Shown here piece after piece: positions 9,001-51,000 of a stretch of DNA of 64,000 bases. Positions within the stretch are counted from its first letter, which is position 1; each line of letters begins with the position of its first letter. The position numbers and the translations under genes were made by a program. Origin of the DNA: Candidatus Omnitrophota bacterium (GTDB lineage Bacteria > Omnitrophota > Gorgyraeia > Gygaellales > Profunditerraquicolaceae); NCBI GenBank assembly GCA_041650835.1, contig JBAZKL010000001.1, positions 701,617-765,616 on the forward strand. The letters are read 5' to 3'. The notes below the pieces were generated by a model. It ran no database searches. It had not been told where the DNA came from and saw nothing but the letters and a program-made list of their open reading frames with translations.

Positions 9001-12000
9001 AATATTTACCTCTTGAAAAGTAATCGGTGAAGCTGAAGCTAACAGTTTTCTGCTTTCAAGCAGCTTCTCCAGCTCAAGCGAACGCTTTTCATACATCCCC
9101 GTATCTTGATATACTCCCGTCTCAATAATAAAAGCGTTCACGGCAGCGGGAACAAGCCTCCCGACAGATGATCCGTCGCGGACCATCCGACGGATCTTAG
9201 ATGAAGACAGATCAGCGTCTTGTGGATCGGGAATAAATTGCAGAGTAAGGATCTTATCTTTTTCTCTAACTAATCCTTGATATTCAAGCGTATCTTCGAT
9301 CCGGGCCCCCTGCCTGTCCATGACCACAAAATCGTTTTCTTCCAATAATCGCCCGAAATCGCCCGCGAGCGTTGATTGCATTGAATCCTTGCCGACAATA
9401 AAGTAAATTTTGATTTCCCGGGAATACTGCTGCCGGTAATACGCTTTTAAAGCTACAGACATTTCCTGATACCAGCCGGTGTTGACTAAAAACAATTTAT
9501 CGATCCCCGGCTTACCTTCTGCCTTATATTCATCAAAAACTGCCTTTACCGTGAGGATCCTATCCTCAAGCGACATGCCGGAGACCTCTTTTTCAAAGTG
9601 CCTGGTCCCGATTAAGAGTATTGTTTCATCCAAGCTTCCTCCTCCCGGCAAGCGTATATCTTTGGCTACTTCACTCAAGAACTCGTGAGCGTTATGCAGG
9701 CAGTTGGCGGTCGGGACAATAACGCCTATTTTAACCGGAAGGGCTTTTTGCGTTGTTTCCCGGTATTGCGTTACCAGGACAGCCGCAGGCGTCTGCCGTG
9801 AATTTACCTCAATGATCTTCTTCCGAGTGAGCTCATATTCTTCCAGGCAGTTCCGGGGAGACCATCTTCCCACCGACTCTATATCTGCGAAGAACTCCTG
9901 CCAATCCTGATCATCCAACACTTTGGCAGCCATTATCAAATTCTCAAAAAAGCGCCTTTCTCTTTCATCCTGTTCAAGGCGTTCAATGGTATTCCACCGC
10001 ACCAGCCAGGTAAATTGCTGAATGAACTTTAACCGCAGCATCTGCGGGATAGCCCGGATCTCCTGCCTGTTTAAAGGATACCCTAACTTCTCCGCTGCTT
10101 TCTGATACAAGATCACCCAATTCTTTAGTTCATCCATATTAAATTCAGCGCCTGCCTTTTGCAGGTCGTAGAAAAGGCTGCGGATCAAATCGTAAACCCT
10201 TGCTTCCGGCCTGGCAATTTCCCAGTCAAGCACCTTACTGATACGCGCACCCAGCATGGTCACGTTTTCCGCGCGGAAATCACCATGGATCACTGCGCGC
10301 GGCAGGCGGGCATATACCCCGGCCAAATGGCGTATCGCAAGGGCTATCTGCTCTTTGAAGAAAGGCTGATGCTCTATAAAAAGCCGCTCCCCGAAGCTCC
10401 TCCCGGCAGGATCTTTCGCGGTAAGGCGCTCGTACGCTTCGTCTAATTTCAACAGACGGTCATCGATTCCCGCGAATTTGATCACGGGATCGGTGATCCT
10501 TTCCCCGCGTAAATGCACCACGCGCGCATCCATGGTAGAGGCATGCAGCCAGGCAAGAAATCCTGCCAGGTCTTTAAGCATTTCAGCGGTCAATTCTTCA
10601 TACGCGTAAATCCTTCCCAAAGAGTCAAACCGATAGACGGTAAAAATGGCGTCGGCTTCAACATAGGCGGCATTGCCTTCTTCCGTATATATAATCTCAG
10701 GGAATCGGGCGTCTCTTAAATTATTAAAAAGTTCCGGCTCCCACAAAGTGCCTTTTAAGTCCCAAACTGATTTTTTAATAACCACCCTGCCTTTATTACG
10801 CGTATCCAGGATCGCGACTTTATTATTCAATCCCTGGAAATCAAGCGAATCGCTTTCGATTTCCAGCCCATAGGCCGCGGCGATCCGCCTGAGCTCATGC
10901 GCGGTGATCTGTACGGATTTATCGCGATGCACAAAAGATTCACGCTGCTCCCAGAGGCTATCGAGAGCGAAAGAGAGCTGCTCTATCACGTGGGTAGGAA
11001 GAAGCCCTCTTTTTCTTTTTTGTTCTCTTACTACCATATCCGCCGCCAACCCATGGACATACACCCCCAATACCGCCGCTTCACGGGGAGTGAGGCCTTG
11101 AGCGATAAGTCCGGCAATAACGCCGGTAAGGACGTCCCCCATCCCGGCTTTTGCCATATATTTATTTCCGGTAGAATTACTATAGACGCTTCCATTCGGA
11201 CAGGCGATAAGAGTACGTTCGTTCTCATCCCCCTTGAGCACGACCACCGTTCCATACGCGGAAGCAAATTCCCTGGAGATATCCGCGCGGCGGGATTGTA
11301 TTTCTTCAAGAGGGATACCGCTTACGCGTGCCATTTCAACAATATGCGGAGTAATGACCGTCCTGCCCCAGGCATTACGCAGGATTGAAGCCTTACCCGC
11401 CAAAGCATTAAGTGCGCCGGCATCCAGGACTAAAGGAATCCGTGTATTTCTTAATAACCGATACATGACCTCATGCGCCTGATCTTGTTTTACGATAAGC
11501 CCGGGGCCTATTGCTAAAGCGCCTATTTTATTCTGAGAGATCTCCCGCAAGAGCCCTTCTGCCGACAGCAGGTCAAACGAATGATCTTTTTGGTGCGGCA
11601 ACGCGCAGGCCATAACCTCATCCGCCGACTTAGCGTAAAACATGCTGTAGAGATATTTCAAGACACCTGCATATACCATACCAGTGCCGCTCTGCAACGC
11701 TGCTTTTGACGCCAACTGCAGCGCGCCCAAATATTTCCCTATCGAACCTCCGGCAATCAATACTCTCCCTCGGCTGCCTTTATGGTCATTGGATCTTACT
11801 TCCGGCACCAAAAATGCCGCGTCCTGTTCATCAATGGCCTGGATTTTGCGGTTTTTATCTAAGCTTGCCTCAATAAACAATACTATTCTCGGAAAATCGA
11901 CATTTTCCGAAACAATCTCAATATCTTCTGACCATAACTTTAACTGCCTCTCCGGAGTAAAATTATCCACACTCACCGTAAATCCAAGCCCAGAAAGCAC

Positions 12001-15000
12001 AGACACATATTCTTCGACTGAAAAATACTGCCAACTCTCTTCTTTTTCTATATCCCACCGCTGGTCTCCAACATATTGATATTCGCAGACAAAATGCATA
12101 AAATCTTTCTTGGATATCCTGACCATATACTCATCGCCTTCGACCAGATCAAACGGCACGTCTTTAGGCAGGAATTCACGGGCAAAAACATAAAAAGCAT
12201 CTTTAATATTTTTACTTTTAAATTTCATCACAACCTGATCATTTTGTTCGTCTTGCGCAGTATCCGCGCCGTCATAAATATACAAATGCCCTGCTGGCTT
12301 AAGCATCTGAGTAATATTGCCTAATGCAGTGCGCACAAACTTGAGGCCAAGCTCATGATTAATCCTTTCCTCGACACGGCGGGTAGGCCTGCCATAATAT
12401 GAATAGACTTCATGGAGAGTATTGGTAACCATGACCACATCAAAACGCCGCTTTAAATCGCTCGTATCCTGTTCAATGATATCGCGCACGATAAAATGCA
12501 TATCTGCGGCGACGAGTTGCGCTTCATCAACAATGTCAGGGTTGATATCAATACCTAAATATTCAATATACGGGTTATCCGGGAATGCCTCTTTCAGGAC
12601 AGCCAGATCGATCGCCTGTCCGCAGCCGATAGACAATATAGAAACCTTGCCCCCCTGTTTTAAACGCTCCCTGATAAACTCCTTCACCCGCTCCATGACC
12701 TTGCCTTTACCGTCGATCCTCTTACAGGAGGCCATCATGGTTAAAAGATATTCCTTAAATGTCTGCCCGCTTAAGGCGACCCTGCCCTGCGCGTATTCGG
12801 CAAAACCTTGATAAAGGCCATGCTCCCGGATATACCGGCAGATCTCATCCGGCACAAGGCCCTGGATAGGAGCTTTTTCCTTAACGAATACCCTCACTTC
12901 CGCGGAGCTGTGTTTTTGATACTCTTCGTCAATGAGTAACGGCTGTAAGTTACCGGCATACGTATGGCAAAACAAAGATCGCTCTTTAAAATCCGCGAAG
13001 CGCAAATCCTTCTCATCCGCGATGAGAAAATGACGCCCCTCAAAAAGCGCGGGTAAAACTTCCTGATCGCCGCCATAATCCCAGGAAAGGATACGCTCGA
13101 AAGAACGCATGCCCAGGATCACATACAGATCATCATGATGGAGCTGTTTTTTAAGCGCTTCAAGGATATCAACATATAAGCTTTTATAGATCACCTGACA
13201 GGAATACCGGGGGTTCCTTTGGACGAACAACTGAAGCATTTCTTTTCTCTGTCCGAGGGTTGTCCCGTAGGCTTTTGTGTGCAGGGGGTTGGCAGTAAGC
13301 ATAAGGATCATCTTATCCAGGCCGTATTGCATGCGCGCTTCTTCCATCATTACCTTCATCGCGGTGGTAAGGGGATTGAAAGCGCTGATAAAAATACCCG
13401 TTTTAGAGCGGCCGTGCATTGCTTTGATCATGGGGCTGGAGGAAGACGCCTGCGGAGGGGCGCGGGAACGCATAAGCGTTGCCAACGCGGATGAAGACGC
13501 GGGGCGGACGGGTAAATCATGCAAAGTAAGGATACTCACTCCCGGACAGCGCAGCGGCCTGAGGATCAAAGCATCACCCATAAACCCGAAACGGCCTGCT
13601 TCCAAACCCGAAGGCATTGCATTATTTACTTTCCGTAAGTGATCCTGCGCGTTATGAGTTAAATATATATTTCCCGGCTTTTTAAGAAACTCATCATTCC
13701 GGCCCATCATCGCCGGCCGCTCCAATATCTTAGAATTCAGAAGGACCGCGATCTTACTCTTACGAGAGAGATACGACTCATAAACGCAGCTTGGCAAAGG
13801 AGATTTTTCTTTCTGAGCGCCCTGAGAAGGATACTCCCGGCAAACAACCGGCCGTTTTCCATATATTGAACACCTGCCGAGCCAGGACAACCCTTCAGGA
13901 AGATCAAAATCTACCAGGACCTTTAAGAACCAGCAAGGCTTCAGGATAAAGAGCTTCTGCTTATCAGGATCGTAAAATAGCAGCTCCAGGGCATTATCAT
14001 AGAGAGGGCCCCACTGCTTACGCATACCAAATCCCGCGACGCCGATATCATACCAGGCGCTGCTCCCGGGAGAAAGAAAACAACAAAAACCATCCTGGCA
14101 GATATTTTGCTTAATATTAAACGGCTGCGACGCAAGCTCCAGGCTGAAATAATCTCTCTTACTCATACCAAAGACCGAATACTTGTCCTCACCACAGGTG
14201 GATACACAAGCCAAGGGGTTTGACGCGGTATTTTTATTACGCTCATTATAAATACCTTCTAAAACTACAAAAATGATACGGATATCTTCATCCGCTAAAG
14301 AAAACTCATCCTTTATCTCGTCTTGTTTTTGCTTAATAAAATTTGTTAAAACCGACAGGTCATGCGGGGTTTTTTCTATAATAACCTTACCTCCCCGGGT
14401 CAGGTATAATTCAGGGTCCCGGCGTTCCCAAGACATATAAGCAAGATGGGTCAAAGCGTCAGCTCGAGGATCATCCCATTTATAATGAGGATCTTTTATT
14501 TTTGTCGCCCTGTCTTCTGCGGAAAATCCGTGTTTAAAGAACTTGTATTTACGCGGTTCTTCCCGGCAGGTCTGTACCCACATTTGATAGATCCGCTCCA
14601 AATCAAGGTCGGCGCAAAGCAAATCAGCGTCATAGAGTACTTGCGCCTCGATCTTTGCTTGCGCTGTTTTAACCTGTAAAGCGTCCGCAGTCTTAACTTT
14701 TTTGTGCCCCACGATAGCGCTTACAATATCCTCAATCACTGTTTCATCAAAATATCCTGATTCTTCCAATAACAGCCTCGCCCAAAGAGCTGAATAACGA
14801 TGATGGTTCTTCTTATAAAAGAGATATGAGAGATCATGTAACAAAACAGCGAAAACAAGAACAGAGAAATTAAAACCTCCCGGAGCATTATGTTCATGAT
14901 CCCCCGCTTTAACTATTTCAATACTCTGCCGTAAGACCTGCAACACATGAATAAAACCATGTTTAGCCTCTACAGTCAGATCGGCGCAAAAACGCGAAAA

Positions 15001-18000
15001 GAGACAACGAGGCAAATAACGGTACAACATATCCAAACATCTCTTAATATCACCAATGACATTTTTTCCGGACGATGTTACAAAACCCCCTTTTAAAACT
15101 GTCTCTATTGATCCCGTATGACGGGCAATTTCTTCACTAAAATCTTCCGGAAAAAGACATTCCTGGAGGATATTCTCGCCTGATGCCTCTTGGGGAGAAC
15201 AGATTAAACGGGCGAAGAATGATTCAGCATTCTCCGCAATCACCTTATCCAGAAATCCCTGTATCTCTAAAAGCCCGGTATCATCAAGGTTATCTTCTTT
15301 CAGAAGGCGGACCAGTTTTTCTTCTTGAATAGCTGAACTGGAGCGGGGCTTCACCTTGAGATCCCGCTGTGTTGCCGGGAATAACACACAAGGCAAACCG
15401 ATCTGAGTTAAACGGTAAGAACGGCAAACCACAAACGGCGATGAGCTATGATTTCCGTCATTTTTAAGCTGAAGAAGGCTTTCCAGGCATTGCATTTCTT
15501 TTATTATTTCGTCTTTAAGCTCTACGGCATTATCTCCCAGCAAATTATTAATATTTCCCAATCTCTCAGCTAATGTCAAGCGACTTAAGAATTGCGGGCC
15601 CAGCCTTTCTTCAAAGCTCATTTTTCCAATAACTGCGAATAAAATAGTATCATGTTGGCTCTTATTCTTAATTGTAAACCCTTGGATACGCTCTTCTTTC
15701 TCGTTATTTATGATAATAAGGTCACCGCCTAAGAACATATTTCTTACCCCTAACGCCCTCCCCTTTTCATCATACAACTCCACTTCCCCCCTCAAATCAT
15801 GGATAGCCGCATCCATGTTCCAATAAGAATTAATTATCTTTGGCCATGGGAATATTCGTACCGTTTGGAATCCAGGATAGATCGGATTCACATCGAAGAT
15901 GCCACTTACCATCCCCTGATTTAATGACACGATCCTGACCTTCACATAGACAACACCCGTTGATATGGGCAAATGCTCTTCACTAAAGGCCATTTGATGG
16001 TTTCTATCTATTCGTAAACCATGGATTAACCCCGGATAATAATGCGTGAGAACCTCTCCTCTGGCTCTGCTCAATTGCATTCTCTCCGGGGGTATAATTT
16101 CGATGTGCTCCCGGCCAGCCTCTTCGGGATACGTAAAACCCTTTTGCAATTGTACAAGCGGGTCTTTAATAGTAAAATCAGCCGACGCGAATTCATGCGG
16201 GTTAGTTATTCGATGCAATGTCTTTGCAGGGACCTTGATCATTGCTCCCGCGGGGACATGCCAAGTAGACACCGCACCTTTTGAGTCTGCCTCTTCTGCC
16301 AAAATATCCCCTGTTAAAGAAATAGTTAATTCCTGGTCGTCATGATAATGGTTGTTTTGAACATGCCGCGGGGGGTTTTGCACTTCACTGATAGCTATAC
16401 CATCCGACAAATACATCAAAGGATGCAGCGCGAAATGGTGATGCCGGGGCTTAGCGTCGCTCTCCCCGAACCTGCTGAGCTGGAAGAAAGGCACAACAAA
16501 CACAGGAGCCTCTTGCGTTAAATATAAGAACGATTCTTTTGACAATCTTTTCGCGCTTAATACCGCCTCTCCAAGAGCATCTTGCAACGCGGGCGTTTTG
16601 CTCACCTCATACTTTAGTTTTTTCAATCTCTCATGGATCTCAAATGCGGCGTATAGCCTGCTTTTCCTGGCTTCATAGCTGATCGTATCGATTTGAACGC
16701 TCTGCCGTTCATTGAACACCCTGACGGCTTGCGCGTGTATCAAGCTGAGTTTAGAAAGCTCCTGGGCGATCACTGCTGATTCAAGCGGTCTTACAAAAGA
16801 CCGGGCATCATATACCAACTCCTTTGAATATTTCAAAACACCAAAGTAAGTTTTTACTTTTGATAAATTCTTAGGGTCATATTCGTTTTTTTTATACAAA
16901 AGGATCTTCGATTTATTATTCTGGTAATAGTGGACAGCTTTCTCAATTTGACTTACGATTTCCTGAGTAAAACCATACGGCCGCACTTCAAAGCTAAAAA
17001 ACTTTTCATTTCCCTGGAGGAACTCAAATAAAGAACCGCTCAAGTGCCTCCAAAATCGCAGCGCGTCGTTGACATCGACATTTTGTTTACTAAAAGTATG
17101 GATTTTAAAGGCTGCCCTGCGGTATTCATACTCGCTGTAATCACTGGCATTGAAGAAATAAGCGAGCCCTTCCTCGACAAGATACGGGGCGATACTGATC
17201 TGCCCTTTTGTCGCGCTGCCTCCAACCTCTTCATCAACCACATACACGTCAGTATCCAAAAGATACCCCCCTATAAATCCAAGCAAGTGCATTTGCCTGA
17301 CAAAATGTATATCATCCCCCAGATTGCCCAACAATGACAGGAACGGGTTTATTTGGATAATATCTCTTCGTGTCGCAGTCACCATTCCCAATACAGAGTT
17401 CGTAACTACTAAATTATTACTTAAGAAGTGTTTTAGCAGGAATCTCGGTTTATAAAACTCCATATTCTGATTATAGGCGGGGACGCTCACCATTGCGAAT
17501 TCCGGATTACTTCCCAGCACTCCGATTAATTTCTCAATAACAGGGCCGACCAACTTAATATCATCATCGACAAAAACCTGATAATCCCCGGCAGACAAAG
17601 AGACCGCCAAGTTTCTATTTGTCGGTATTGTATTCTTCTTTGAACAGACAATTTTTACGGGGAACGGCACTGATCTTATTTTCTCTTCAACAATATCACG
17701 TTTTTCGCGAGTAAAATTCTCAGGATCTGCTATTGTAATAACAAGTTCTAATTCTATTTCACCTGATGCCCTGGAGAGCTCTTCCAGTCTTCTTAACAAT
17801 GACGCGTGTCGTTTTCCAAATACCGATGCTATTGCGACGCTGACCTTGACCTTTTTTGCGGTTAAATGCTGATTATAGCTATACACCTGTCCCCGGCACT
17901 GGGGTAATTGAGTATCCCAATAATTCCTGCTCAATTGTTTAAGTTCGCCAACCTTTTGAGAGAACTGCTGTCTTGCTTGGAACATTTTCTGCACCGCGTC

Positions 18001-21000
18001 ATCATCGATCTGAACATCGACTGAAAAACCCTGCTTTTCAAAAGTCCCGTTATGAAAGATGCCCGCTTCCCGTGCGATCAAATAAACCTGTCTTTTTTCC
18101 TTATCGCTCAAGCCTTCTAAATGATTATTAATACGCGCGGTGACCTCATTAACATAATGCTCAGAGAATATGTCTTTTACTCTTTCCCGGACTACTTGGG
18201 TTATTGTAAAATCATGTATGGTTTCAACTCGTTTCAACAACCAGTTAATCGCTCCGTGGCCTGTGAGTTTTCCTCCGCTGACAGCGTCAATAGAGCTACT
18301 AGACGTTTCTCTCTGGCGTAACGCCGCAGGAGTAAGATTAAAACCGCGTAAATTCCCGATACCAGTGACCATTGATAAGCGGATCACTGATAAATCAGCC
18401 AGAGCAGAGGAACACGGGGACGGTTGCTCAAGATGCAGATCCACTAATTCACCGCTTTTATAATTTTCCCGGAAAAATCTCTCTCCGAATTCCCCGAACT
18501 CCACCTGATGCGGGCCCCGCTGGGCGGAGAGCCCGGCACGGGAGGGAATAATTATGGATATCGCCCGTTTAAACGGTTCAACAACACCGCACTTCTTCCC
18601 TGCCTGATCATCACTTGAGCTATCCGGTAAAACATTCGTTGCCGTGGGGAAATAAGTATTATACTTTCCGGCTGAAGGCGCCAAGTAATAAATAACCGTT
18701 ACATTAATATTATTTTCTCGAGACAGCCTGACCCATACCCGCTCTAAGAGACGGGAGAATATTCGATGAGTTTCATTATCATCCCTGGGATGAGGGATGA
18801 ACAGAACTACCGCGGGATTCCCCCTTGCCGATATACTTTTATTAATAAATCCCTTTTCGAGGGAATAGAGATGTTCTTCTACCCCTTCGGGATCGCGGGA
18901 GCAGGCCAAGTCATAATCCAAGTGAATGTTCTTTATCCGGCCGGCAGATAAAATACCCGCGGCATTACTCAATTCCTGCCTGCGGATATCCGCCCCTGTT
19001 AAACCTTTTTCCTGCTGCGCTTGAGTCAAAACCACGCCGCGCGCACCGCTGCTATAAACCACATTCGTAATATCAATACCTTTTTGAGCCAACCGCACGC
19101 CTAATCCACCCGCCGCAATTTCGATATCATCGGGATGCGGGGAATAAAATCTGAAACAAACATTCCTGTTTATTCTGACAGGAACAAACCCTGCGGGCGT
19201 TCGTTCTTTCTCAAACGCCAACACATACCTCTTTGAAAGCTCTACCGGTAAAATCTCCCCCCTTTTTATACGCGTCACCGTAAAGGCGTGAGCGTACGCA
19301 TTTTTATCGTGCGTGAAACCATAGTAACCGGCTAAAGCGCCCGCATAGCGCATGGCATGCCGGGTAAAACTTTTGTAATCACGGCGCTCCTGCTGTGACT
19401 TATGCGCACCGACAGCTTCTATTACTTTTCCCGCGGTTTCTTCACCAAAAGAAAAAACGAGATTAAACTCAGGAGGCAATTCCAGGGAAGCATAATAAAA
19501 CGCAAGCAACTCACGCTGCCTCAGCGATGAATACAGGAGTATCAAATCTTTGGCATGCGGGCAATACGGGGCCAGGATAATTTCAGGGTCATAATCCCCT
19601 AATACCCGCTCTAAAGGAAGATCCTTCCAGGTAAATACCTTGACCTCATTTTCCTCCCGAAGGGCGTTGACAAGATTTCCCGCGAAAGCTAAATGATCGC
19701 CTTCTGTTATCTCAAAAACAGCGATCTTTTTTCCGTAAGGCACAGGATAATTCTTCATGCTGTCCGTGATTTGAGCCTTAGTAAGAAGGATATTCCCTTC
19801 TAAAGGATAAGCCGCATTGTTAACAAGCCGCTTCTTATGTTCATCATAGGTTACCGGGATGATCCTTAAGAAATCGTCAAAAAGACCTTCGAGAACTTCA
19901 CCAAAGGGATCGCCGGACTCATGCAATGCGCCGCGAGCAGGAAGCCCCGGGTATCTCTTGAGGTATTTACCCGGATACCCCACCAGCAAACCAAGCAGCT
20001 CGATCAGGCAATTAAAATTATACATATATTGCTGCCGCAATACTTCCGGGATATTTTTAATCGCTTCTGAATCCGCATTTTGTTCCAAATATACCCTTAC
20101 AATACCCGCTACAGTAATATGGATCCTATTACTATGCCCGGGAGGGACGGAAAATAGCGGGGTAAAGTGTTCCACAAATCTCCAATGCAGGCCGTTCTCC
20201 ATAGTTACCGGAAAGGTTCCTGAAAGCGGGAAATTCTGACTCAATAGATCCTGAAAAACCTCTCCATTAACCCTGACCTGCAATTCCCGGTATTTTGGAA
20301 AGAATTTAACTGCCAGAGACGGTTCATCCCTATGCTGATAACGCTGCTGGCGTTCCTGCCTATCTCTTTCCCAGAAAAATAACGGGATTTGAGGGCCGTA
20401 TAAGATCAAAGTCTCTTTTTTGGCTTTATCGATCAGTAACGTAAAACGCAATGTCAAAGGATCCTCGAAAAGCTTAAGCACAAACAATTGTTCCGTAGCG
20501 TAAATAGAGATACATCCTGCGTCCCAATAATACTGCCCTATTCTGTCTTTGCCCCATTCAAAAGTCAAATTTTCGTTATTCGTTTCCCCAAGCGCGCTTG
20601 AACTGGATTTTTTCTTAGGATCTGCCTGCTTTTGTCTTTTTTTTCGGCCCTTTGTCGCTGCTCCTTTTTTCTCCTGAGGAGCGTTGCCTTTCTTTTCTTT
20701 GCGCGCCTGTTTTTCCTCCCCGCGTAAAAAGGCCTCTCTGACAGCGAGGCGGGGGAATAAAACCAGGCTCCCCAGCAGCATCGCGATAGTAGCATAAAAA
20801 GGCATTTGGCCGATAAACCCGAACAAAACAGCCGCTTCGGTAATTATATTACTGACGGCATGGAGCATAATAATGGCCCATAACGAACTTGTCCTGGCAT
20901 ACACTGACGCGTAGACTACCCCGGACAGGAATTGCTTGATAGGTATGAACTTGATGCCGGCAAAAAACGGCAGGATCAAATGATAGGCGGCGAAAAGAGC

Positions 21001-39000: not shown

Positions 39001-42000
39001 CATCTGCGCCACAAAATAGACATCTTTGAGCCGGAAAGGAATAACACCCTTGCCCTGTTGTATCTGCGTAAGCGCGCGGGCAATCCCTTTTAACGACTGG
39101 CCCTGGCCGCTGTGCTGCCTCATCAATTTAACAAACGCATCCTTGAGAAAAATGATGTCCCGGTCTTGAATATCGAATTGATACAGCAAAAACCTCAATG
39201 CTTCCGGCAGTGAGCCGATATCAGCGGGACTGACCAATGCTGAGGAAGCCCTGGACGATAAAACAATTCTTTTGAGTAATGCGGCATATGCAGCGCCTAC
39301 CACAAGATTATTTCTCCTGGCAGCCTCCAGATAAAAACGCGCCTGCTGCGGGTTGAAGCTGAAATAGGCGACAGATGCCCTGAGCGCATCCTGAAGGCTA
39401 CGGCCGCCGGCATAATTGAGCACATACCGGGAAATATCTTGTTGAATAAAAGGATCGAGATTAAAGAAACATGGATGGATGTATATAAGGGGAACCCTCC
39501 TTTGGCTATAAATCGCGGCCACAGGAGCAAACCTTGTATTGGGGGAACACTGAAGATCAAACCTCTTCTCAGTGACTGCCACGGTGAATTTCTCCGGAGG
39601 AGCGTTTTGCAGGTATGACCTGATGGAGATAAGATAATCGTTAAAAAGTCCCGCTAAGGCCGCCCGGGAAAGCTCATCTAAACAACCCCGCAGCATATAT
39701 TTATTGCTTTCTAAACTGATACGTACCCCCCGGTTAAGGTTATAAGAATACCTGGAACCATCCGGATGAGGCACAAATAACGGATACGTATGAACAGGAT
39801 CTTGAGCCAATGGACAGGTATCAAGAAAATCCTGAAGTTTGAGCAAGTTGTTCTGCCGATTTGCTGCAAAGCCTGAAGAAACAGGCAAAACAGGCGAAGC
39901 AGAGGTATGTGCGCGTAAAACAATTACTTTAGTACTCTGATAAAAAGATTCAATAGACCCCGGCATCCACCACCCTTTAAGCTGAGGACGAAGTATGAGC
40001 TCAGGACGATGGAAGATAATAACACCGGGGTTCAAATGATACCCCTCTGACATAAGCCCTCTGACTTCTATGAATCTGTCCCCCTGGAAACTTTTCCCCA
40101 GCCTCATGAGCGCCCTGCGGATGGCGATATCCTGGAAATGGTGGCTGGAAGTTTCCTGATGTTCATAATCTGTACCGCTTTCGATATTAGTCACATTATT
40201 ATCGTATACATCCCGGGCAACACCTACCAGCCATTCCAGGACATCAACATTATTCCTGAAGAATTCAACATAGGCATCCTCATATAATGCTAAAGCCTCG
40301 CGCACAGAGACAAATTTACCGTTAATATGATGCAGGATCTCCCAACCGCCTTCCCCAAACCATTCATTGAGCCTGCCATAAACTGCCTGCCGTTCAAATC
40401 CGAAGAACCCGCAACGGAAATATTCTTTTTTGCGGTAGCTCCTCAAAAATTCCGATCTGCTGACCTTCAAAACCCGGTTACTGCCCCTGATATGCGTTAT
40501 CCTTTTCTTGCGCGGGGCGACCGTAAGGGCCTTTTGCGCCGTCTCAAGGATAGCCAATCCTTCTTTTTCCCGGTAATAGTGCACCGCCTCATTGTATAAC
40601 CGCAGGCTGTGATATATATGCAGGGCCATTAAATAACGGGAACGCATCGGATAAAAAGTGATCGCCCCGCTTTCCAGATCACGTTCTTCCATGTAAAACG
40701 GCCACTCAATATCACAAAATCCTGTCTTTACCTTGGGGAAGCGATGGCTGATCTTTGGTAAGCCGACCCTCTCTCCCCTGCCATAACCTACAAAACCGTC
40801 GACTGACTCAAACGGTAACTCATCTTTTCCGGCGAAATACTCAAGCGCCGTTTTAATATAATAGATAGTCCTGCCGGTGGCATGAAGGTCTATTATCCTG
40901 ATCTTTTTATAGTTAAGCGCTCCTATATCCTTACATTGTTTATAAATGAATTCCGCTTCCTGCATGATAAGATCATCTGACTCGATCACGGATATCAGTT
41001 TTTCTTTGAAAATACGGGAAAATTCCCTATAAAGTTCCCGGTCAAAGTTGGCTTCATCAACCCCCCCGTAATATTCTCTCTGCTGAGGAACATTTAATTC
41101 TGCTTTTGTTTCATAAAAGATCCTCCCCGTTGTTTCTAATAAATGGCTCAAGCTTTCGGTCGAGCGATAACAACTATAATTAAAATGCGCAGGCAGGCCG
41201 GGCTGGTAGACTATACCACTTCTTTTCCTGCCTTTAAAACTATCAAGGTAATGCAAGAATTCAAATCCACTGATCGCGTCCCGCGCTAAAAATATCACAA
41301 ACTCATCCTCCTCGAGCGACAAGGCGTCAAAAAGCCAGCGATGGTCCTCGATCCGCCCCTCCAAACATAGTCTCGTACCGATGCCTCCATTCCTATCCAT
41401 GGCCCCAAAATCATCCATCATATACCGCTCCATCGAGTCATTCGGACAAAAACCTTTCTCAAGCAGCGATTCATTGGCTAAAGAGATAATCATGAACATC
41501 TCATCTTTATGCAGGAGGCGCGCCGCTCCATCTTCAGCCAAGATCCGCAATTCCTGCGGAATGGCCCAAAATAAGTTATTCAGGTCAGCTCCTGAAACCC
41601 CTCCGGGCCGGATTATTTTATCGATGCTGTCACGATAATGTTCAACTAAAGACAATAACTGCTCATGGGCAGGATATACAATATTACCTCGGTCATGCGG
41701 ATATACCTCCATAACCAAAAGCTGCTGATCAACGAAGAAAAACCGTAGCGCCGTATTGTTATAGCCGATGAAAGATATCATCTCTCGATCATCCGTAATA
41801 TACGAATAGGGGACAAGATACCTTCCTTCTGCATCTTTTATCGCTCCTCTGATCCCGTAATACCAAAACTGCTTATCTTTATCGATGAAATAAGATACGG
41901 CGACCTCACAGGCCTGCCGCGACAAATCTTTTGAGCAGGACAAAATGTCTGCCACTCTTTCAATAGTATCCAGGGGAATGAATTTATTCTTTTTCGCTCT

Positions 42001-45000
42001 CTTAGCGAGGGGCGAAGTGCAAACAGGAGCAGATGGATCTTTGGCGGGAGGAAAAATAATGATCATGACAGAAGATACAGGGGTAATAGACTTCAGCGCC
42101 GTATCGAATGCTACTTCAACGTAATCGGTGTTTTCATTCTTGACCTTAATGCGTTTGTGATGATCGGCGAAATAAGCTCTCACCAGCTTATAGATCCTGT
42201 CCGCGCATCCGGCATCAGAAATTACCAGTGGCCGTGAGACCTGAAGGCAGGATTCGAAAAACCCAAGTAATACAGATTTCGCGATACCCTTACGCTGCTG
42301 ATTCTCATAAATATCGATATTATCAATAATCAATTCCTTATCAGTAAAATGCGCGTAAAAAGTTCCCGCGGAACGGCCGTCTTTAAAGATACGGTAGCGC
42401 CTTCCATAATCCAGCTTAAATGTCAGGATGAAATTATTATGCTTGATTTCAAGGCCGGGGATATCGATGAACATCCGGGGAGCAGCCGCCAGGCCGCCGT
42501 CTGTAACCGCAGAAGAAGCAGTGTTTCTCACCCAAAAGAGATTTGAAGAATAGCCGTTTATAGCTATAGTATCGCTATCTGTTAAACAATATCCCAAGTC
42601 ACAAGGCAATTTTGTATACAACGCGTGGAGGATATGCGGAGGCGTTCTATAGCCCCGGGACGTCCACTTCTTTACCTGGTATTCTACCGGAGTGATATAA
42701 ATACGCTGCCATCCCTGACAGGCGGCATATTTCTGGAACGCGCGCAGAAGCTGTTTCGGCCAATCAGAGAATTGCTGTTTCATCTCCACAGGAAGCAATT
42801 TATACATATCGCTCTGTATCGAGGAAATTACTTTCCCGGCGGCATTCTTCTCAACCAAAAGGTAGGCAAACGCGCTATAGGTATGCTCCCAAAACATCTT
42901 ATTCTCCCTCATGCCGCGCACTGCTTCTTTCATCCTGCCGCTTTTAGGCAAAAGTATGAACCTGATCTGTCTTTTTTCTCTTCCCGGGACAACCCGCGCC
43001 TCTAATTCTCCCGCGTATATCTCTTCTGAATAATCATGCCTTTCTTGATGCGTGATCCTTAATAGCTCTTCAAGCGGCACATACCTGGCCAGCAAAGAAA
43101 GGAAAACCGGTTGCAAAATACCGCTTTTTCTGACACTGCCTAAAAAGGCGATAATTTCATTGATTGAACGCTGCTTATCTCCTTGATCATGCATATTAAG
43201 ATCTTTAACTGCGGACTCCAAGCCCAAGGCCTTACAATAACTAAGAATAACCGCCAGATCAGCCAAATCTATCCTGGACTGCAACAAAGTATCGATCACG
43301 CCCTCATCAGAGCCGGATCGTAATTGTTCATATATAATCCTCAAATCAACGGGTTTAAAATTATATACCGGATTATGGGCTTTCATAATACGGCAAAAAG
43401 CGCCAGAAGCTTGCGTATCCTCCTGGTTGTTTGATATTATTTCAGCTAAAATGCCGGCGCTCTGCCAGGGAAGACCATGTTTTTCTCTGAACATTATTGC
43501 TTTTCTTAAAAAAACTTTATCCACAGAGGCGTCCCTCAGCAATGCTTCCGCGAAATACCCTTTTTCCGTATTATGTAAAAGCTGGTATCTATCCCGCAAC
43601 CCGCAATGGTCATTACCCGTAAAATAATCACCTGCCATAACACAATCAGCTAAATAAATACCCGGGATGCCCTCTCTAAGCAGGGGCTCAACCAACTCTT
43701 TTCTTCCTCCCGCCGCGGCAACAGCTTTTGCAAGAGAAGTAATATCAAAAACACCCAATATACCTTTCTTCTTTTGATCGTTGAGATAATCAACCGTAGA
43801 GAGCACGAGAGGATCGTCGTGCTTAAGAAGCAAATAAGCTTCCACAAACGAATGGATATAGCTCTTAGGAAAGCCACTCGCCTGAAAAGAAGGCAATGCG
43901 CATTGCAGGGCGCTTATTCCAAAAGCTTCCGCCGCGACTTTAAGGCTGGTTAATTCTTCATTCGAATCAGGCCTGATCTCTCCGATCAAATCGATCAGCG
44001 CGAAGGTACGCTCATCCAATCCGATCTGCGATATCACCCTGTCCAAACGCGCCTCCTGATACAACGGCCTATTCCGGTAGTTCTTAAGCTCTCTTAACGC
44101 GGTTTTTACGTCGTTCAAAGAAAGCTTCCCTGCCCCTGATTGCGTTTGGCCGCTCATGATCGGGGATGAACCCAAGTTCCGGGCAAATACGGCATGATAG
44201 GGAGTAGGATACCCCTGCCAATCATAGATCATTTTTTCATTAATGCCCTGTTCAAAACCGGCATTAACGAAGTAACTCTTTACTAATGCAATTCTTTCTC
44301 TCTTGTTCGATGCGGCTTGCCAGGGGAGGCTTCTTTCTTGAAGGGCAGACCGATGGTCAAAGACTACGGCAAGACAAGCACCGGGCATAAGCACTCGCTT
44401 GGCTTCCATAAAAAGCTCACGGGCAAGCTTAACGTAAGCGATCCCATTGACCATGAGAATACCCGCTATGCTTCTCTCGGGGAAATGTAATGACGGATCA
44501 GTATTTAAATCCTGAAGAATATAGCCGCCATTTAAACTTTTATTAGCTTTCAGTTCTAATTCATTTAATCCTATCCCGGTAATCTTACCGTTAAGCGTTC
44601 TGGGGAAATAAGTATTGGCTCCGCTCATGAGATCAAGATACACCGGTTCAATAACGCCCGTCCCGCGGGGAAGGATATTAAACAATGCCGCCCTTATCGC
44701 TTCTGACTGATCGGTATTCATATACCCTAAATGATTAGGCGTTTCCCAGGAAGAGATCATCTTTTGCTCATCCCCTGAAACGCTATCACCTGTTCCCTTA
44801 TCCCCATTAATATCTCTGTCTTTGCTGCTAAGAGAAACATCAAAAAGCCTGGTCGCCTGCGGAGATGATGATCGTCCTTTCCCTTTCTTATAATACCCTT
44901 CAAATTTCTCTACAGCAGGGCCTATTCTCCTGAAATAAAGCTCCCAGTCACCGGTATCAACATCCAGAATAAACCTCTCCAAAGATCCCCGATATACAAA

Positions 45001-48000
45001 GCCGTATTTACTAAAGACCTTGCTCAAAACCGGGAGCGCCTTTAAAGCGCACGGGACAACCTCGAAGGCGTTCCTTCCGGAAATAAGCTCGCCCATAAGG
45101 ACATTGATCATAAGATAAATATAATCATTGCCCCGCCAGATTTGATCTAAGTAAACTCTTAACACACGCAATTTAGCTTCCGAGAACAGGTCCTCGAAAT
45201 ACAGGAATCCGGACTGGCTCTTATCAGAAGCGTTGAATAATATAAGCTTATAATAAGTGGAATACGCTCCGGCATTACGCAAGCGTTCGATAACCACATC
45301 GATTTCCGCCTTTTGCGGCAGTATCCTGATAGTACCAAGCTGCCCCTCTACCAAGTCTCCGGCATCAGCAAGGCGTATTTTCCATTCATAATCAGGACCC
45401 AGAAGATCATCGGACAATGCCGATCCAGCCTTATTATCTTTAGCGATCGTGTCGGCAAAATCCCGCAACTTTTGATGCTGCTTTTGCGTAATCTTCTTTT
45501 GTATCTTACTGAGGTCTTCCATGATAAGCCTGACGGGATCCTCGGCAAGCTCAGGGAATACCGCGATAATACGCAACAACAGTTCTTCCCTTTGACGGAT
45601 TGCCGCCGCGCTCAAATCGAGGAAAAGCATATCGCGCCAAATATCATAGGCGCGCAGCCATTCCCCCTCACTTACCGCTGCTTCGAATAATGCAAACCAA
45701 GCCTGCTCAAAGTCTCTAACGGCAAAACCGAGAGCACCCAGGTCTTCATACATTTCAACGGTGAGTCCCTGACAGGCAGCAAGCCTGTCTTCTCCCTCAG
45801 AAGCAAGCAATCCCCGAAAAAGCCTCAACCATGTGTGCAGTTTGCGTATCTTATCCTCCGGAGAAGAAAGTGACGGGAAATATTCAAAGCCTTTTTTACG
45901 CGCCTCATCCCACCTGCCTTCTTCAATAAGCGACTGCCAGTTGCTGAATGCTTCCTCCACCCGCGACTGCGCCAACGAACTGCCGGCAGAAGTAGACGTC
46001 CGCGCGCAGACCAGCGCCCCCAAACCATCTCCCCTTGCATGTAAAGATCTATAAAGCCCTTTTTGACCTGACTTACTGGCGGCAATCGCGGAAGAACTCC
46101 CCAAAGAAACCGCGGCAAAAATATCCGCCTCCACTTGAGCTCTTTCCGCAAAATCGATATTTGCATCTTCATATAAGGTTTCCCCGCTGATCTCATGTAT
46201 ATCCAAGGCGCTAAAACCATACCCCGCTTTCAAAGCATCATTCAAGAACGCGATAATACAAGCCACCTTTTGTTCAAAAAAGACCTCCTGTTCCCCAAGG
46301 GACTTTTGCCGGTCACGGAATTGCTTTATTATTCTGGCTGTTCTGTACTTATAAATAGTTTCCTGTATAATTCCTTCCGGTCCGGGGGCGATCAATGCTT
46401 TTTGCAAAATGATCTTTAATTTCGCTAAGGAATACTCCTGGCTTAAAGACTCAACCAACACTATAATTCCTTCATTATCTAAAATTAGCCCTTCCTCTAT
46501 TAATTTAATCGCCGCATGCAAAGCCAGGGACACTTGATTGTCTTCCCGGGTCTTAGGGTCGATTTCCGGAATGAAAATATGCCCGTAGAGCCGCGGCCAA
46601 AAGCTTACAAAAGGCCTTAATGCGGAAAATTTCTCCGGGAGATCGTTATAAAAGCCCAATACCGTATTGTCCCTTTCGCACCGCCGCGCGTAGGCATTAC
46701 GGCTCAACCAGAATTTGTATTTATTTTGTATCAATTCCAAAGCCTCTCCCATTCTAAGAATATCATACCAGTTTGGTCTCCCGTTTTTAAATGTTCCCGG
46801 TTCTCGAGAAGCTGCTGGAGCCGCACGGATTCTTTCCTTCAGCACCACAGGATTTATATAAGGGACGTAGGCTGCCTGTCTATCCTGTCGCCATATTTGA
46901 AGATCGCCTTCCGGCTCATATCTAATAATGCTATACTCTATTGTTATCTGTTGTTTTTCAATGGCCTCGACCGTCAGATCAAACAGCTGCTCCCTTGAAG
47001 GATCATTCAGCGTGTTTGCTAAAATAAACACACTGCTGATAAATTCTTTCTTACTGATATCCAAGATCACTTCATCCCGGCAAGGAGCCGGCCATGTGGA
47101 AGCATCTTGAGATCCGACTCCGGTATCACGACAAGTCGCCGTAGCCGTATATTCTCCGTACGTAATCTTTGCTTCCCAAATTGTCTCCGCTAACGCCTTG
47201 ACCTGCGAATATTCAACCGGCGAAGATGCGCTGTCAGGGATCAACCGGTAAATTTTTCTATTATCCTTGCCTTTTTCAACAACTATATTTTTATTTTCTC
47301 CGGCTAACTGCTTTAAATCCAAACGCCGCTGGCTTGCATTTACCCAGGGGATCTGAGGGTTCTCCCGCAAAAGCCTCGTATAAAGAAACACAGTAATAAA
47401 CCCGTGTTCTTTTAAATAGGATCTTACTAAAGCAATCCTCTGTTCGGGATAACTTCCCGGACGATAGATCGCTGAAGACGCGCCGGCTAAAGTTCCTTCC
47501 CGTAAAGAATCTTCCAGCGGCGTTTCTTCTCCCCGGGTGTTCACGAACGAAAAACCGTCAGCCGCGTAGAATATTGTCCCTTTTCTCCAGCCTTGATGGT
47601 CCAAAAGCCTCCATATATCAAATAGGACCGACATTATGGAGCGCGCGTGGATAACGGGGACCGCCGGTTCACCCAATAAGCCACCTTGAGGATTACAAGA
47701 AATAATAAGGAGATTGCTTAGTTTTTGCTCCCGCGATAGATCATGGATCAAGCCTTTTAATGACCCGTTTTTGATCGTATGGTTGCCTTCTGCGGTAAAA
47801 CCGTGAATATAATATGCCGGCCCCCGGTATCTGAATAATTTCTTTTGTTTCTTGTCGCACAAGAATATATCCGCTTGAGGATTAAACGGCATCATATATT
47901 TATCGTGTAGCTTCGCCGTCAAACCAGGCAATTTCTTCCAAAAGAAGACGCCCGCCCCGATGGCAAGAAAAGCGGTTAACAAAACCTGGTAATCCTCAAA

Positions 48001-51000
48001 ATATCCTGTAACGGTATAGAAAAACGCTATAAGCACCGCCGCCATATATAGAGACGTGCTTATGCTCCCTCTTTCATGCTTCACAACTGTCAGGAAAGAA
48101 TACGGTATTTCCTCTATTTTCCATGGCCGCAGTGAAGACCCGCTCTGATTACTGTTTACCTGAGGAGTTATCGAGTAAAAGCCATCGTTAGGGGATTCGG
48201 GAACAATCTCCTCTTTATAGAGCGCCACGAAGACTTCCCTCAGCTTTCTCTGGACCGCGATCCTGGAGCGTTCGTCAAAGAATTTACCATCCGCTATGGC
48301 GGCATCCCGGTCCCAAAGGCGCTCCATAAAGATCAAGCTGCCCAACAGGTCTTTGCCGCTTACGCCTTCAGCCACAAAGATCTCATATACCCTGCCGGAT
48401 TGAGAGAAGCCCTGGCGGACCTTGATGAATTGTTTCTCTAAGCGCTCGTCATTCAATCTCAAACCCGCAAAGACATAAAAGCTGTATTGCACACGGATAC
48501 CGAAAGGATTAACGACCGTATAATCAGCGGCATTAACGGCGTTTTCCGCTATTTTTAAACTCTTTTCAACCAAATCCAAGCCCGCGGATCTCCGGCTTTT
48601 TCCGGTACATTCTTCATAGTTATGCACCGCCGCGTAATTCTGGCTGCCGACGTGGCCGTCATCATTCGCCTGCAGGCAAACAACGGCAGCCGCCCCGTCA
48701 ATGCTTGCCAACAACCTGTTATTTTTATACCCTAAGCTTGCTCCTTGAGCGAGAAGATCTACCGGAAGAACAAAATCCGCGTCAAAGGCGATCTCTATGC
48801 TTTTCGAGCTTTTAATTTTCTTCGAAAGCCCTGAAGCCGCGGAAGAAAAAGGGTTATTGCCTTTACCGCAGGCCGCCCGGCTAAACGCAATAGCTGCGGC
48901 GACAGGATCCGCGGACTGGGTGATGGCCGCGTTCACTAAAACGCCATTGCATCCCATTTTCAATATTTGGCGGACATGCCGCGGCTCTCCGATCCCGCAT
49001 TCACCGATCAATTGAATACCCGGACGTATTTTTCTGGCTAAGGCGATAACCGCCTTCACTTTATCTGTTTCTTCAGGGAGCCCCAAACCTCTATGGGAAC
49101 CAGGCCGCGTTAATTCAACGCGTAACGCGATAACCTGGCTGATGTCCAACAATTCCGCCAGCATCTCCGCGAGAATTTCTTTGCCTATAAGGGGAATTAT
49201 CCTGATATTCCTGTTAAGCGCGACCAGCGCCTTGACGGCGTTAAACATTTCCGCGTTATTCGTCATTACATCTCTATTTCTTACCTCCAGCTTTACGTAA
49301 GGGGTTTTTGAGAAATACACCCCGACTCCCGCCAGCATTATTGCGTCTTCCTGCGTCATGGCTTTACTGGTATTGACCACCGCGAGAAATTTCCTTGTCT
49401 GCCGCCGGGCCGAAAGCTTCTGGTGAATCAAATCAACAAAAGGAATACGCAATGCTTTCGGGAGTGCCGTTAAACTTCCTTTTTCACCCAGGGTAACCAA
49501 ACCGCTATTTTCATCAAAGACGATTTCCCGCAACATTCTACGGGCATTGTCCAAAGTAGTGCATTCCTTCAAGAATTCTATGCCCCCCGGCAGAAAGATC
49601 AGGAACTGTGTCCTTGACCTTACGGTCAATTCGCTTGCGACTTCAGGCGAAAGAGAGATAATACACGATTCATCGAAAGAATGCGTAATCGCCGTGGGGG
49701 CGATCAAGGGGAATAATTCCTGGCCGGAAATCACTATTTTCCTTTTTTCTACTAGCGGTGAAGCCGCGCGCGCGGACAAAACTCCTTCAGATATCGTTAA
49801 GCGGAAAATCCTTGGCTGACCGTACATCAAAGGAACAAACCAGATAGGATGCGAATAAACATGGGCCCTATCCATCTTTGACTCGACCATTGCGCCTCCG
49901 AGATATATCCCGCAGTGAGCGACAAATCCCGACGCATGAATATAAGCTACTAAATCATTCTTTTTCGCATCGCGCAAATTGATCTCAGGGAAGATCGCGC
50001 GTAGTTTTTCATATGAGAATAAAGCGTGCAGATCAACCCCTAATTTCCTCGTCGCATAAGCGATACAATCCTCTAATCCATTTTTTGTTCTTTCAACTAT
50101 TTGGTACCCCGGCAAACGCCCGATATCATCATATAAACCAAGGCTAAATAAACGGGAAATTTCTTTACTTACTCGCTTTCTGAATTTATCGCTGCCATGG
50201 AAACAAACACCCGGTTTTAGTAACGGGAACCCGGCAGCTTGCAAAGCTGAAGACGTATTGTCTGCTAATCCAGGCGTGCGCCTTTGCCCTGAGGCCAGCG
50301 GCGAAGCCGCGCGGGGCGCTGCCGCTTTCGCCCGAACCCTTATCTCTGCCTGAGCGGAACCCTCACCTTGACGGCCATTTTCTTTGTCCAGGAACAATAA
50401 AACAGGGTCAACGTATCCGGCTTTCTCCATTACCCTTAAAACAGGGGCTTGTTTTACGTATTTAATGTCATTCGCGTTAATACCGTATTGCCGATTTAAT
50501 ATCCTTATTGCCCTTACCAGGCTGGTAATAAAGCTGTCCCTGATCCTTAACTGGCTGCCGTTACAGCGTATGCTTGGGCCTAGAATAAAGTCCATCGTGC
50601 CAGGGTTAAAAGCATCCCCGGCGGGATCATAGAGGGCGCTGTATTTCAGACAATGCTTGAGTATCTCCTGATGATCACTTATTCCATTATGCAAAACAAC
50701 CATTTTGTGCAGCGCTTCAAGCGTGGCGCGGTTGACAACAGATTCCCCCTCAATATATCCTCCCCCATACGTAAATATAATATCGTTCAACCTGCGCGTC
50801 ACAAAAGAATCGATACCCTTGCCCATCAAAAATCCGCAAGAAGCGTTGATCTCCGTTGTTTTTCCATACGTGCATAGGGGTGTTAATTGGATGGTTTTGG
50901 TATAGACATACGGCGAGGGCATACCCGGCTTGTTATATTCCGACAGTTTCCCATACTTAAGATCATATTCATACCCCCAGATATGGGCCCAATATGCGCG

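Follow-up and report, generated by a model that had tools for sequence, protein, structure and literature searches.

Cofactor-metabolism-type domains arranged as cassettes within a giant open reading frame of Candidatus Omnitrophota

Why do catalytic folds of four different cofactor pathways lie within one polypeptide, and do they still serve there as enzymes? The question was raised by a 64,000-nucleotide stretch (here called the window) of contig JBAZKL010000001.1 from a Candidatus (Ca.) Omnitrophota bacterium, in which a single open reading frame (ORF) of 21,333 codons occupied positions 1..63999 of the minus strand and ran off both window ends. An initial annotation, made from the letters alone, had placed in this ORF a ThiG-like barrel, two NadD-like nucleotidyltransferases, two tandem CoaB-like domains, and a YjeF_C-like domain, and had suggested that at least some of them had changed from catalysts into sensors that bind nucleotides or cofactors. 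The folds proved to be real where they had been placed, within one uninterrupted frame and from four cofactor pathways (Pfam, NCBIfam, PDB, and AlphaFold/Foldseek), and profile searches matched ThiG, CTP_transf_like, DFP, and Carb_kinase, all in the translated frame; chance was excluded for these fold assignments by the E-values and by the conservation in orthologues. Three cassettes were distinguished: (i) a nicotinamide adenine dinucleotide (NAD)-type cassette; (ii) a CoaB domain plus a CoaB remnant, followed by a CPBP protease; and (iii) a ThiG/BexX-type barrel. The preferred reading, to which a probability of roughly 70% is given, is that the window comes from the interior of a giant Omnitrophota multi-enzyme gene, with the cofactor-type domains as cassettes in series that are joined at a short motif and are mostly enzymes.

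The minus-strand frame contained no stop codon, while each of the other frames of the six-frame translation had 746-1,667; since the ORF was open across the window and off both ends, the window was taken as an internal part of a gene of >64 kb. The plus strand had a negative GC (guanine versus cytosine) skew throughout the window, and the amino acid (aa) composition of the giant ORF was that of an ordinary globular protein. Self-BLAST of the ORF gave only ten distant internal similarities, and this near-absence of internal repeats indicated that it was not a repeat protein. Pfam scans of the whole translation gave >20 significant domain matches, all in this one frame, and about 20 distinct Pfam families were represented by one or two copies each with none dominant. 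The domain content included methyltransferase, two copies of HATPase_c, HD, GT2, PIG-L, CheR, and a weak GNAT match, together with transmembrane (TM) clusters; hydrophobic clusters lay at aa ~5313-5357, 14080-14415, and 19162-19485 in a Kyte-Doolittle scan, which is not a topology predictor. The ratio of nonsynonymous to synonymous substitution rates (dN/dS; Nei-Gojobori) was 0.19 over 5,216 aligned codons between the window and the orthologous locus L005, which was found on the 543-kb Ca. Omnitrophota metagenome-assembled genome (MAG) contig JBAZTA010000002.1 and whose fetched 24.5-kb sequence was one open frame.

The NAD-type cassette was composed of five domains, all of them, like the other window features placed below, on the minus strand: (i) NadD-like domain 1 (aa 16862-17065, window 12805..13416; dN/dS 0.10); (ii) a class I S-adenosylmethionine (SAM) methyltransferase with the SAM motif LSIGCGQAIDL (aa 17107-17255, window 12235..12681; dN/dS 0.084); (iii) a YjeF_C / NAD(P)HX dehydratase domain (aa 17390-17676, window 10972..11832; dN/dS 0.125); (iv) an APH/choline-kinase-fold kinase (aa 17758-17995, window 10015..10728; Pfam APH 38.9 bits; dN/dS 0.094) with an intact catalytic loop HGDFRAEN; and (v) NadD-like domain 2 (aa 18090-18300, window 9100..9732; dN/dS 0.19). 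The YjeF_C domain matched Pfam Carb_kinase (PF01256) with 151 bits at aa 17414-17674 and TIGR00196 with 170.9 bits (cut-off 129.85) over model positions 5-272 of 277, and it was 40-45% identical to ordinary ~515-aa Nnr enzymes. Like Nnr (TM0922, 2ax3; B. subtilis YxkO, 3rph), it aligned full length with the HKG...G and GxGDVLTG motifs, here HKGSRG and GMGDVLTG, which were also conserved in the homologous proteins P0001-P0004; unlike Nnr, it had no YjeF_N and was set between the methyltransferase and the APH-fold kinase, with a NadD-like domain on either side. No YjeF/NadD fusion was found in a literature search.

The two NadD-like domains matched Pfam CTP_transf_like with 45 bits in two stretches (cut-off 21), and all top NCBIfam and PDB matches of both were NadD/NMNAT. 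A Kennedy-type CDP-choline / CDP-ethanolamine module, composed of APH kinase, CTP_transf_like, and methyltransferase, was rejected because the significant NCBIfam/PDB matches of both nucleotidyltransferase domains were all NadD/NMNAT. As in NadD/NMNAT (B. subtilis NadD, 1kam), the fold aligned full length and the SSxxxR signature was present in both copies as a C-terminal ISSTxxR-type motif (SSAEVR in copy 1 and SSSKIR in copy 2), conserved in the homologues. Unlike NadD/NMNAT, copy 1 displayed T-x-x-M, so that the catalytically important second His was missing: GIFISAFNPLTTAMKVM was aligned to GIFGGTFDPPHNGHLLM of 1kam, and FNPLTTAM (window 13357-13380) replaced FDPPHNGH of B. subtilis NadD, with T-T-A-M in place of HxGH. 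The loss of both histidines, pointed out by the initial annotation, was thus borne out, as was the retention of HNAH in copy 2, where L-H-N-A-H carried both His and a Gly-to-Ala change and the homologue P0002 had the canonical HNGH. Eukaryotic NMNATs carry a T-x-x-H first motif. The His-less FNP-x-T-x-x-M was found in every NadD-like 1 homologue detected, at 33-49% identity. Since both His were absent in all homologues while dN/dS was 0.10, a ligand-binding or pseudo-enzyme role of NadD-like 1 is plausible.

In the second cassette, CoaB-1 (aa 13672-13889, window 22333..22986) was a phosphopantothenate-cysteine ligase domain in complete form, and directly upstream of it lay a CheR-type SAM methyltransferase domain (aa 13460-13620, window 23140..23622; Pfam CheR 52 bits; PDB 1af7/1bc5). 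The CoaB region matched Pfam DFP (PF04127) with 259 bits in two stretches, the first at aa 13675-13863, and NCBIfam coaBC_dfp (TIGR00521) with 249.8 bits (cut-off 219.7). CoaB-1 aligned to E. coli CoaB (1u7u) with E 1e-44, was 36-50% identical to canonical enzymes, and carried ITNFSSGK, AAVADYR, and VKIERE (the Lys289 equivalent) in register with 1u7u; it retained all columns invariant across 31 CoaBC proteins, including the equivalents of Asn210 and Lys289. Asn210 and Lys289 (E. coli numbering) are catalytic in CoaB, which also carries the AAVADYR motif. The dN/dS of CoaB-1 against L005 was 0.073, the lowest of all regions measured. CoaB-1 differed from CoaBC (Dfp) in four respects: it had no CoaC, the Asp of the E-x-I-D-P-V-R loop was not conserved, a degenerate CoaB fragment followed downstream, and a CPBP protease came after it. 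This fragment, CoaB-2 (aa ~13931-14040, window 21880..22209; dN/dS 0.16), had ISRQVSPE for ITNFSSGK and LARPPFIK for AAVADYR, kept a KIKK-like motif, and ran into a TM helix; it was an N-terminal fragment modelled solely as a low-confidence beta-alpha-beta remnant. Two tandem CoaB-like domains had been proposed here, and of these the first stands as complete and the second is reduced to a truncated, degenerate remnant. Directly after the CoaB cassette, at aa 14080-14415 (window 20755..21762), a TM cluster contained a CPBP/Rce1-type intramembrane protease (Pfam Rce1-like 55.5 bits), whose three hallmark motifs EEILFR, FAAYH, and HAVSN were intact.

The third cassette was a ThiG/BexX-type (beta/alpha)8 barrel (aa 4748-5047, window 48859..49758), identified by profile, PDB alignment, and model. 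Its ThiG-like core (aa 4860-5043, window ~48.87-49.42 kb) matched Pfam PF05690 with 59 bits (cut-off 23) when searched as an unsplit segment, and the best PDB sequence matches of the barrel were ThiG 2htm (E 3e-10) and BexX 4n6e. An AlphaFold model, built with four homologues, had pLDDT >90 in the core, and the top 15 Foldseek matches of this model were all BexX or ThiG (E 2e-14 to 2.5e-09, TM-score ~0.75-0.78), led by the thiosugar synthase BexX (E 2e-14, TM-score 0.77) and followed by ThiG of four species. The Schiff-base Lys and the Glu were kept: YVKLEV (window 49282-49299) aligned to WVKLEV of 2htm and was invariant in four homologues (Lys96/Glu98 in B. subtilis / T. thermophilus numbering, position 96 being counted from the alignment). 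The barrel thus shared with ThiG/BexX (4n6e/4n6f) both the (beta/alpha)8 architecture and the Lys-Glu pair in K-L-E-V; unlike ThiG, which has DAGxG with Asp182, it displayed ECGIG (window 48988-49002), invariant in the subfamily and resembling EGGIG of BexX. The VLVNxAI phosphate-binding end was present, ~100 extra residues preceded the core at the N-terminus, and a ThiS-like domain was not found in the window ORF by Pfam scans. Free-standing ThiG-like homologues were 308-381 aa long and 40-50% identical. The neighbourhood of one of them, P0155 (locus L011), was a same-strand row with two B12-binding radical-SAM genes, a PRK-like kinase, a LOG/Lysine_decarbox gene, and two ABC1 kinases. Two of these domain types, Radical_SAM and Lysine_decarbox, are also listed as frequent in giant Omnitrophota proteins.

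Taken together, most cofactor-type domains kept their catalytic residues and were under purifying selection, and only NadD-like 1 and CoaB-2 were degenerate. Scoring of the catalytic residues found the Asn and Lys of CoaB-1, the GxGD of YjeF_C, the Schiff-base Lys of the ThiG-like domain, and the HxxH and SSxxIR of NadD-like 2 all present.

The cassette borders were then compared, and a short motif of five residues was noticed there, first as (A/S)-S-S-P-(V/I/L/M). In its general form [SA]-S-P-[LVIM], it occurred 23 times in the window ORF (aa 1019-19592) compared with 2.1 +/- 1.4 expected from composition-matched shuffles, and scrambled orders of the same residues, used as a control, gave about one occurrence each. 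Three copies marked cassette borders: AASP-L (aa 4746-4749, window 49753..49764) immediately upstream of the ThiG-like cassette, SSSP-M (aa 16854-16857, window 13429..13440) at the N-terminal border of the NAD-type cassette, and SASP-I (aa 18323-18326, window 9022..9033) at its C-terminal border. The homology to the free-standing protein P0001 started at aa 16860 and ended at aa 18314, bracketed by the motifs at 16854 and 18323, and the alignment to the standalone ThiG-like homologues started right past AASP-L.

The motif was counted in the relatives as well: (i) 12 copies in L005 (0.8 expected), five in P0005 (0.5 expected), and three in P0012 (0.09 expected); (ii) 13, 7, and 16 copies per ~7,600 aa in L012, L014, and L015, respectively; and (iii) none in P0001-P0003, each of which was a single cassette. 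Its density was 0.9-2.1 per 1,000 aa in giant ORFs versus 0.05-0.08 in ordinary proteins and ordinary ORFs of Omnitrophota contigs, a 10- to 40-fold enrichment. The NAD-type cassette was bracketed by the motif at equivalent positions in L012 and L015, by close variants in L014, and by a downstream variant only in L013. When the window was compared with L005, the S-P core proved identical at each of the 16 aligned positions, against 60% identity in the flanks; these flanks were Ser-rich, poor in Asp, Ile, and Tyr, and linker-like.

At the nucleotide level, the invariant Ser codon was TCG at 11 of the 23 window sites compared with 12% TCG usage overall (P = 3e-5), and at 4 of 12 sites in L005 (P = 0.04); a rare-codon pause at domain borders and a nucleotide-level signal are two possibilities for this excess. 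A DNA-level repeat at the junctions was rejected, since the codons varied and the TCG excess was the sole nucleotide-level signal. Internal translation starts at the junctions were also rejected: the codons there were mostly GTT, CTT, CTG, and ATT, and no purine-rich stretch preceded them. The motif is defined at the protein level, and it marks cassette borders and rearrangement breakpoints in several divergent giant ORFs.

Evidence on those breakpoints came from the relatives, the closest of which were Ca. Omnitrophota MAGs; those from which an Omnitrophota origin of the window was deduced had 77-85% protein identity. L005 was 85% identical to the window in its best segment and 73-79% over the aligned blocks, and the two were only partly collinear, the blocks of 73-79% identity being interrupted by lineage-specific segments or insertions. 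One block had moved: aa 1259-1524 of the window ORF (window 59428-60222) corresponded to aa 5353-5618 of L005 (266 aa, 70% identity), it was bracketed by the motif at aa 1262 and 1514, and in L005 it was inserted exactly at a junction that read KQKASSP in both genes. All window/L005 block ends that were checked had the motif or a close variant of it (GSPV, ASPR, ASSPF, or SSAL). Orthologous giant genes differ by cassettes that have been inserted, lost, or relocated, and the breakpoints lie at the motif. In P0005 (4,250 aa), a ~90-aa element (FYQQLFQNPQYYQNIKAQYQLGLKIMEENL...) was observed three times between cassettes, around aa 1560, 3290, and 4150, and it may be a lineage-specific inter-cassette spacer.

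The NAD-type cassette was found embedded in six loci by genome and metagenome scans (L005, L012, L014, L015, L004, and L013), with four loci coming from a metagenome scan. L005, L012, L014, and L015 were open across the whole 22.8-24.5 kb fetched; L013 was a 4,412-codon open frame, and L004 had two long open frames with a frame switch between them. L004 (CAZPNW010000031.1) was labelled 'uncultured Planctomycetales' and contained a cassette copy of 82% identity in a giant frame. Mis-binning or misclassification of an Omnitrophota contig is the probable reason for this label, and the frame switch of L004 near nucleotides 8522-8636 resembled a short-read frameshift.

Free-standing versions of the same cassette were found at L006, which lay on the same contig as L001, and at L007; both were 46-49% identical to the window. 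P0001, encoded by L001, was a free-standing 1,572-aa protein from a Ca. Omnitrophica MAG that shared aa 16860-18314 alone with the window ORF (49% identity), and none of its neighbours was similar to anything in the window. When 1.84 billion representative proteins were searched exhaustively with HMMER, the NAD-type multi-domain architecture was recovered in about six clusters only, one of them in a 4,250-aa protein, and all matches beyond these were ordinary Nnr proteins. Signal-peptide-like N-terminal leaders were present on five of the five large genes of the L001 row (at 1656, 5113, 6994, 10001, and 14782), on both large L007 genes (at 6511 and 8077), and on P0003, P0153, and P0154. The leader was stereotyped in the L001 and L007 rows, P0003, and P0154: a basic N-region was followed by a hydrophobic core and an A-x-A-like site, and ~10-25 aa further on the motif L-[SA]-P-[QSH]-x-x-I-x-x-x-x-F was conserved; this L[SA]P-x-x-x-I...F motif was not recurrent within the window ORF (one match versus 0.66 expected).

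Under the preferred reading of cassettes in series, the cofactor-type domains would most likely be working enzymes, as judged from their retained motifs. The NAD-type cassette would most likely act on a pyridine-nucleotide-like substrate, for which adenylyl transfer, phosphorylation, methylation, and ATP/ADP-dependent dehydration are possible chemistries; the His-less NadD-like domain would most likely be a non-catalytic nucleotide-binding partner; and the giant chain would most likely tether a series of independent enzymes to the membrane or be the precursor of these enzymes. Several results weigh against this reading: (i) ~85% of the ORF had no recognisable domain in Pfam and PDB sequence searches; (ii) the CoaB and YjeF_C domains were without their usual partners, CoaC (PF02441) and YjeF_N being found nowhere in the window ORF by Pfam scans while CoaC was present in 66 of the 66 CoaB homologues found; (iii) NadD-like 1 and NadD-like 2 scored 67.4 and 48.1 bits, respectively, against the cut-off of 112.45 of the NadD equivalog TIGR00482; (iv) the NCBIfam ThiG models gave no match to the ThiG-like segment, and no thiamine genes (thiS/thiF or others) were found among the neighbours of the standalone P0153 and P0155; (v) signal peptides on ATP-, SAM-, and CTP-dependent enzymes are hard to square with an extracytoplasmic location; and (vi) the canonical junction motif was absent from L013.

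The explanation that survives best beside it goes one step further and treats the giant ORF as a polyprotein, i.e., the equivalent of an operon without stops, in which the cassettes are mobile, the [SA]-S-P-[LVIM] motifs are both processing sites and recombination-tolerant joints, and the enzymes are released; cleavage could fall to the CPBP/Rce1-type protease inside the ORF or to a C39/S8 peptidase from another gene. This explanation is regarded as possible and is held only tentatively. It agrees with the position of the motif at cassette borders, with its invariance within poorly conserved linkers and its absence from single-cassette standalone proteins, and with the existence of the same cassettes elsewhere as independent genes; an intact CPBP protease lies inside the ORF, and cleavage of such giants has been proposed earlier without known sites (West-Roberts et al., bioRxiv 10.1101/2023.11.21.568195). 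The motif, however, may equally be a structural linker, a helix cap, a glycosylation/modification site, or a tolerated recombination point, CPBP, C39, and S8 peptidases have no known specificity for it, and the giant frame of L013 lacked it altogether. The CPBP/Rce1-type protease is a candidate self-processing enzyme, with nothing to tie it to the junction motif.

The conversion into sensors suggested by the initial annotation, whereby the cofactor folds would have turned from catalysts into nucleotide- or cofactor-binding modules feeding the signalling of the giant protein, is unlikely. It is plausible for NadD-like 1 alone, which has no HxGH in any homologue, remains constrained (dN/dS 0.10), and is kept in the cassette versions without NadD-like 2 (P0004, P0005, and L013); CoaB-2, without the SSGK and AAVADYR motifs, is degenerate, and signalling-type domains (two HATPase_c and CheR) reside in the same ORF. 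The motifs of CoaB-1, YjeF_C, NadD-like 2, the ThiG-like domain, the methyltransferase, and the kinase were, by contrast, kept, including in homologues only 33-50% identical; the lowest dN/dS belonged to CoaB-1; and the two degenerate copies shared their cassettes with intact enzyme domains. Because most domains keep their catalytic motifs at dN/dS of 0.07-0.19, a general conversion of catalysts into sensors is not supported.

Equally hard to maintain, and if anything a little less probable, is a relocation of the cell's own CoaB, NadD, Nnr, and ThiG into the giant gene with an ordinary cytoplasmic role. CoaB-1 (36-50%) and YjeF_C (40-45%) are near canonical enzymes and score above curated cut-offs, and reduced, partial cofactor pathways have been described in Omnitrophota (Nielsen & Lui, bioRxiv 10.64898/2026.06.07.730766); Seymour et al. 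2023 (PMC10066038), however, reported that >75% of Omnitrophota species representatives have complete NAD, coenzyme A (CoA), and thiamine pathways. The signal-peptide-like leaders on the free-standing NAD-type and ThiG-like proteins argue against a plain cytoplasmic housekeeping role, and so do the missing CoaC and YjeF_N partners, the NadD-like scores under the equivalog cut-offs, the nearness of the ThiG-like domain to BexX with its standalone homologues outside a thiamine gene context, and the rarity of the NAD-type cassette, ~six clusters among 1.84 billion representatives being ill-fitting for an essential function. An artefact, in which the long frame would come from mis-assembly, a pseudogene, or a chance open frame, has as its sole hint the frame switch of L004, which is typical of short-read MAG errors, and is refuted by 21,333 stop-free codons against at least 746 stops in the other frames, by purifying selection throughout and >20 domain matches in this frame, and by four independent relatives (L005, L012, L014, and L015) that are open over the whole 22.8-24.5 kb.

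The reading as cassettes in series places the window ORF among known giants. Giant ORFs have been documented in Omnitrophota (Seymour et al. 2023, PMC10066038); West-Roberts et al. 2023 (bioRxiv 10.1101/2023.11.21.568195) described 'Archaeovorin-type' giants with glycosyltransferases, methyltransferases, peptidases, and NUDIX domains and raised their cleavage as a question; and Nielsen & Lui 2026 (bioRxiv 10.64898/2026.06.07.730766) defined class 1 'multi-enzyme metabolic clusters', which reach up to 147 thousand amino acids (kaa) and in which methyltransferase, HATPase_c, GNAT, HAD, and HD domains form a co-occurrence module. The window ORF shares with these giants a length of >10 kaa, many Pfam families with none dominating, scattered TM helices, a content of methyltransferase, HATPase_c, GNAT, HD, and glycosyltransferase domains, and little conservation between lineages, and it is a member of the described giant multi-enzyme Omnitrophota class. 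It differs in two respects as far as the main texts of those papers go: DFP/CoaB, Carb_kinase/YjeF_C, CTP_transf_like/NadD, and ThiG are not mentioned there, and neither the junction motif nor cassette borders or shuffling are described. The claim that such a co-fusion was not known has to be qualified: giant multi-enzyme Omnitrophota proteins had already been described, and the domains co-occur here because separable cassettes are strung together, rather than as parts of a new and integrated architecture. Full-length giants have been reported with an N-terminal C39/S8 peptidase and a SecA-DEAD-like domain; Pfam scans found neither in the 21,333 aa of the window ORF, which do not reach the N-terminal end of the gene.

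By analogy, the giant ORF resembles viral polyproteins and the megasynthases of nonribosomal peptide (NRPS) and polyketide (PKS) synthesis in having many catalytic units per chain, short inter-unit sequences, and module exchange. It is unlike NRPS/PKS in that Pfam scans detected no carrier, condensation, or ketosynthase (KS) domains in the window ORF, no repetitive module logic was seen, and the units were unrelated enzymes rather than one chemistry iterated.

Outside the three cassettes, further features of the ORF were as follows. Two HATPase_c stretches (aa ~11889-12046, window ~27860-28330; 92 bits summed in Pfam) had the sensor kinases SrrB and YycG as best PDB matches, and no HisKA or receiver domain was detected near them. 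A ~300-aa unit was present in three copies as distant internal paralogues (aa 9601-9899, 10811-11109, and 20606-20904), and two other paralogue pairs were found (aa 8820-9300 versus 9962-10463, and aa 3901-4090 versus 18945-19125); these internal paralogues were 26-40% identical and had no Pfam or PDB sequence match. A weak B12-binding match was located at aa 3159-3233, and PDB sequence searches with three 5,000-aa pieces gave no further domains.

Giant genes make up a large share of the small Omnitrophota genomes, and what their products do, and whether they work as one chain or as pieces, is a question stated in the literature. The giant ORF analysed here holds recognisable, selectively maintained enzyme domains of cofactor metabolism beyond adhesion and glycan-degrading parts, and these domains lie in discrete cassettes that are also found as free-standing proteins with signal-peptide-like leaders. 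Neither the NAD-type cassette nor the junction motif appears to have been described before, and the NadD-like domain with the conserved His-less motif, a candidate pseudo-enzyme, deserves biochemical study. With the motif, whether and where giant proteins are processed becomes testable with existing proteomics data, and the motif also offers a rational way of dividing giant proteins for structure prediction and expression. If the polyprotein explanation is true, the motif would be the first map of cleavage points of giant proteins, and the released enzymes would include a CoaB, an NAD(P)HX dehydratase, a NadD-type adenylyltransferase, and a ThiG/BexX-type sulfur-transfer barrel; the released enzymes would serve either at the membrane or beyond the cell itself, in its surroundings or inside a host.

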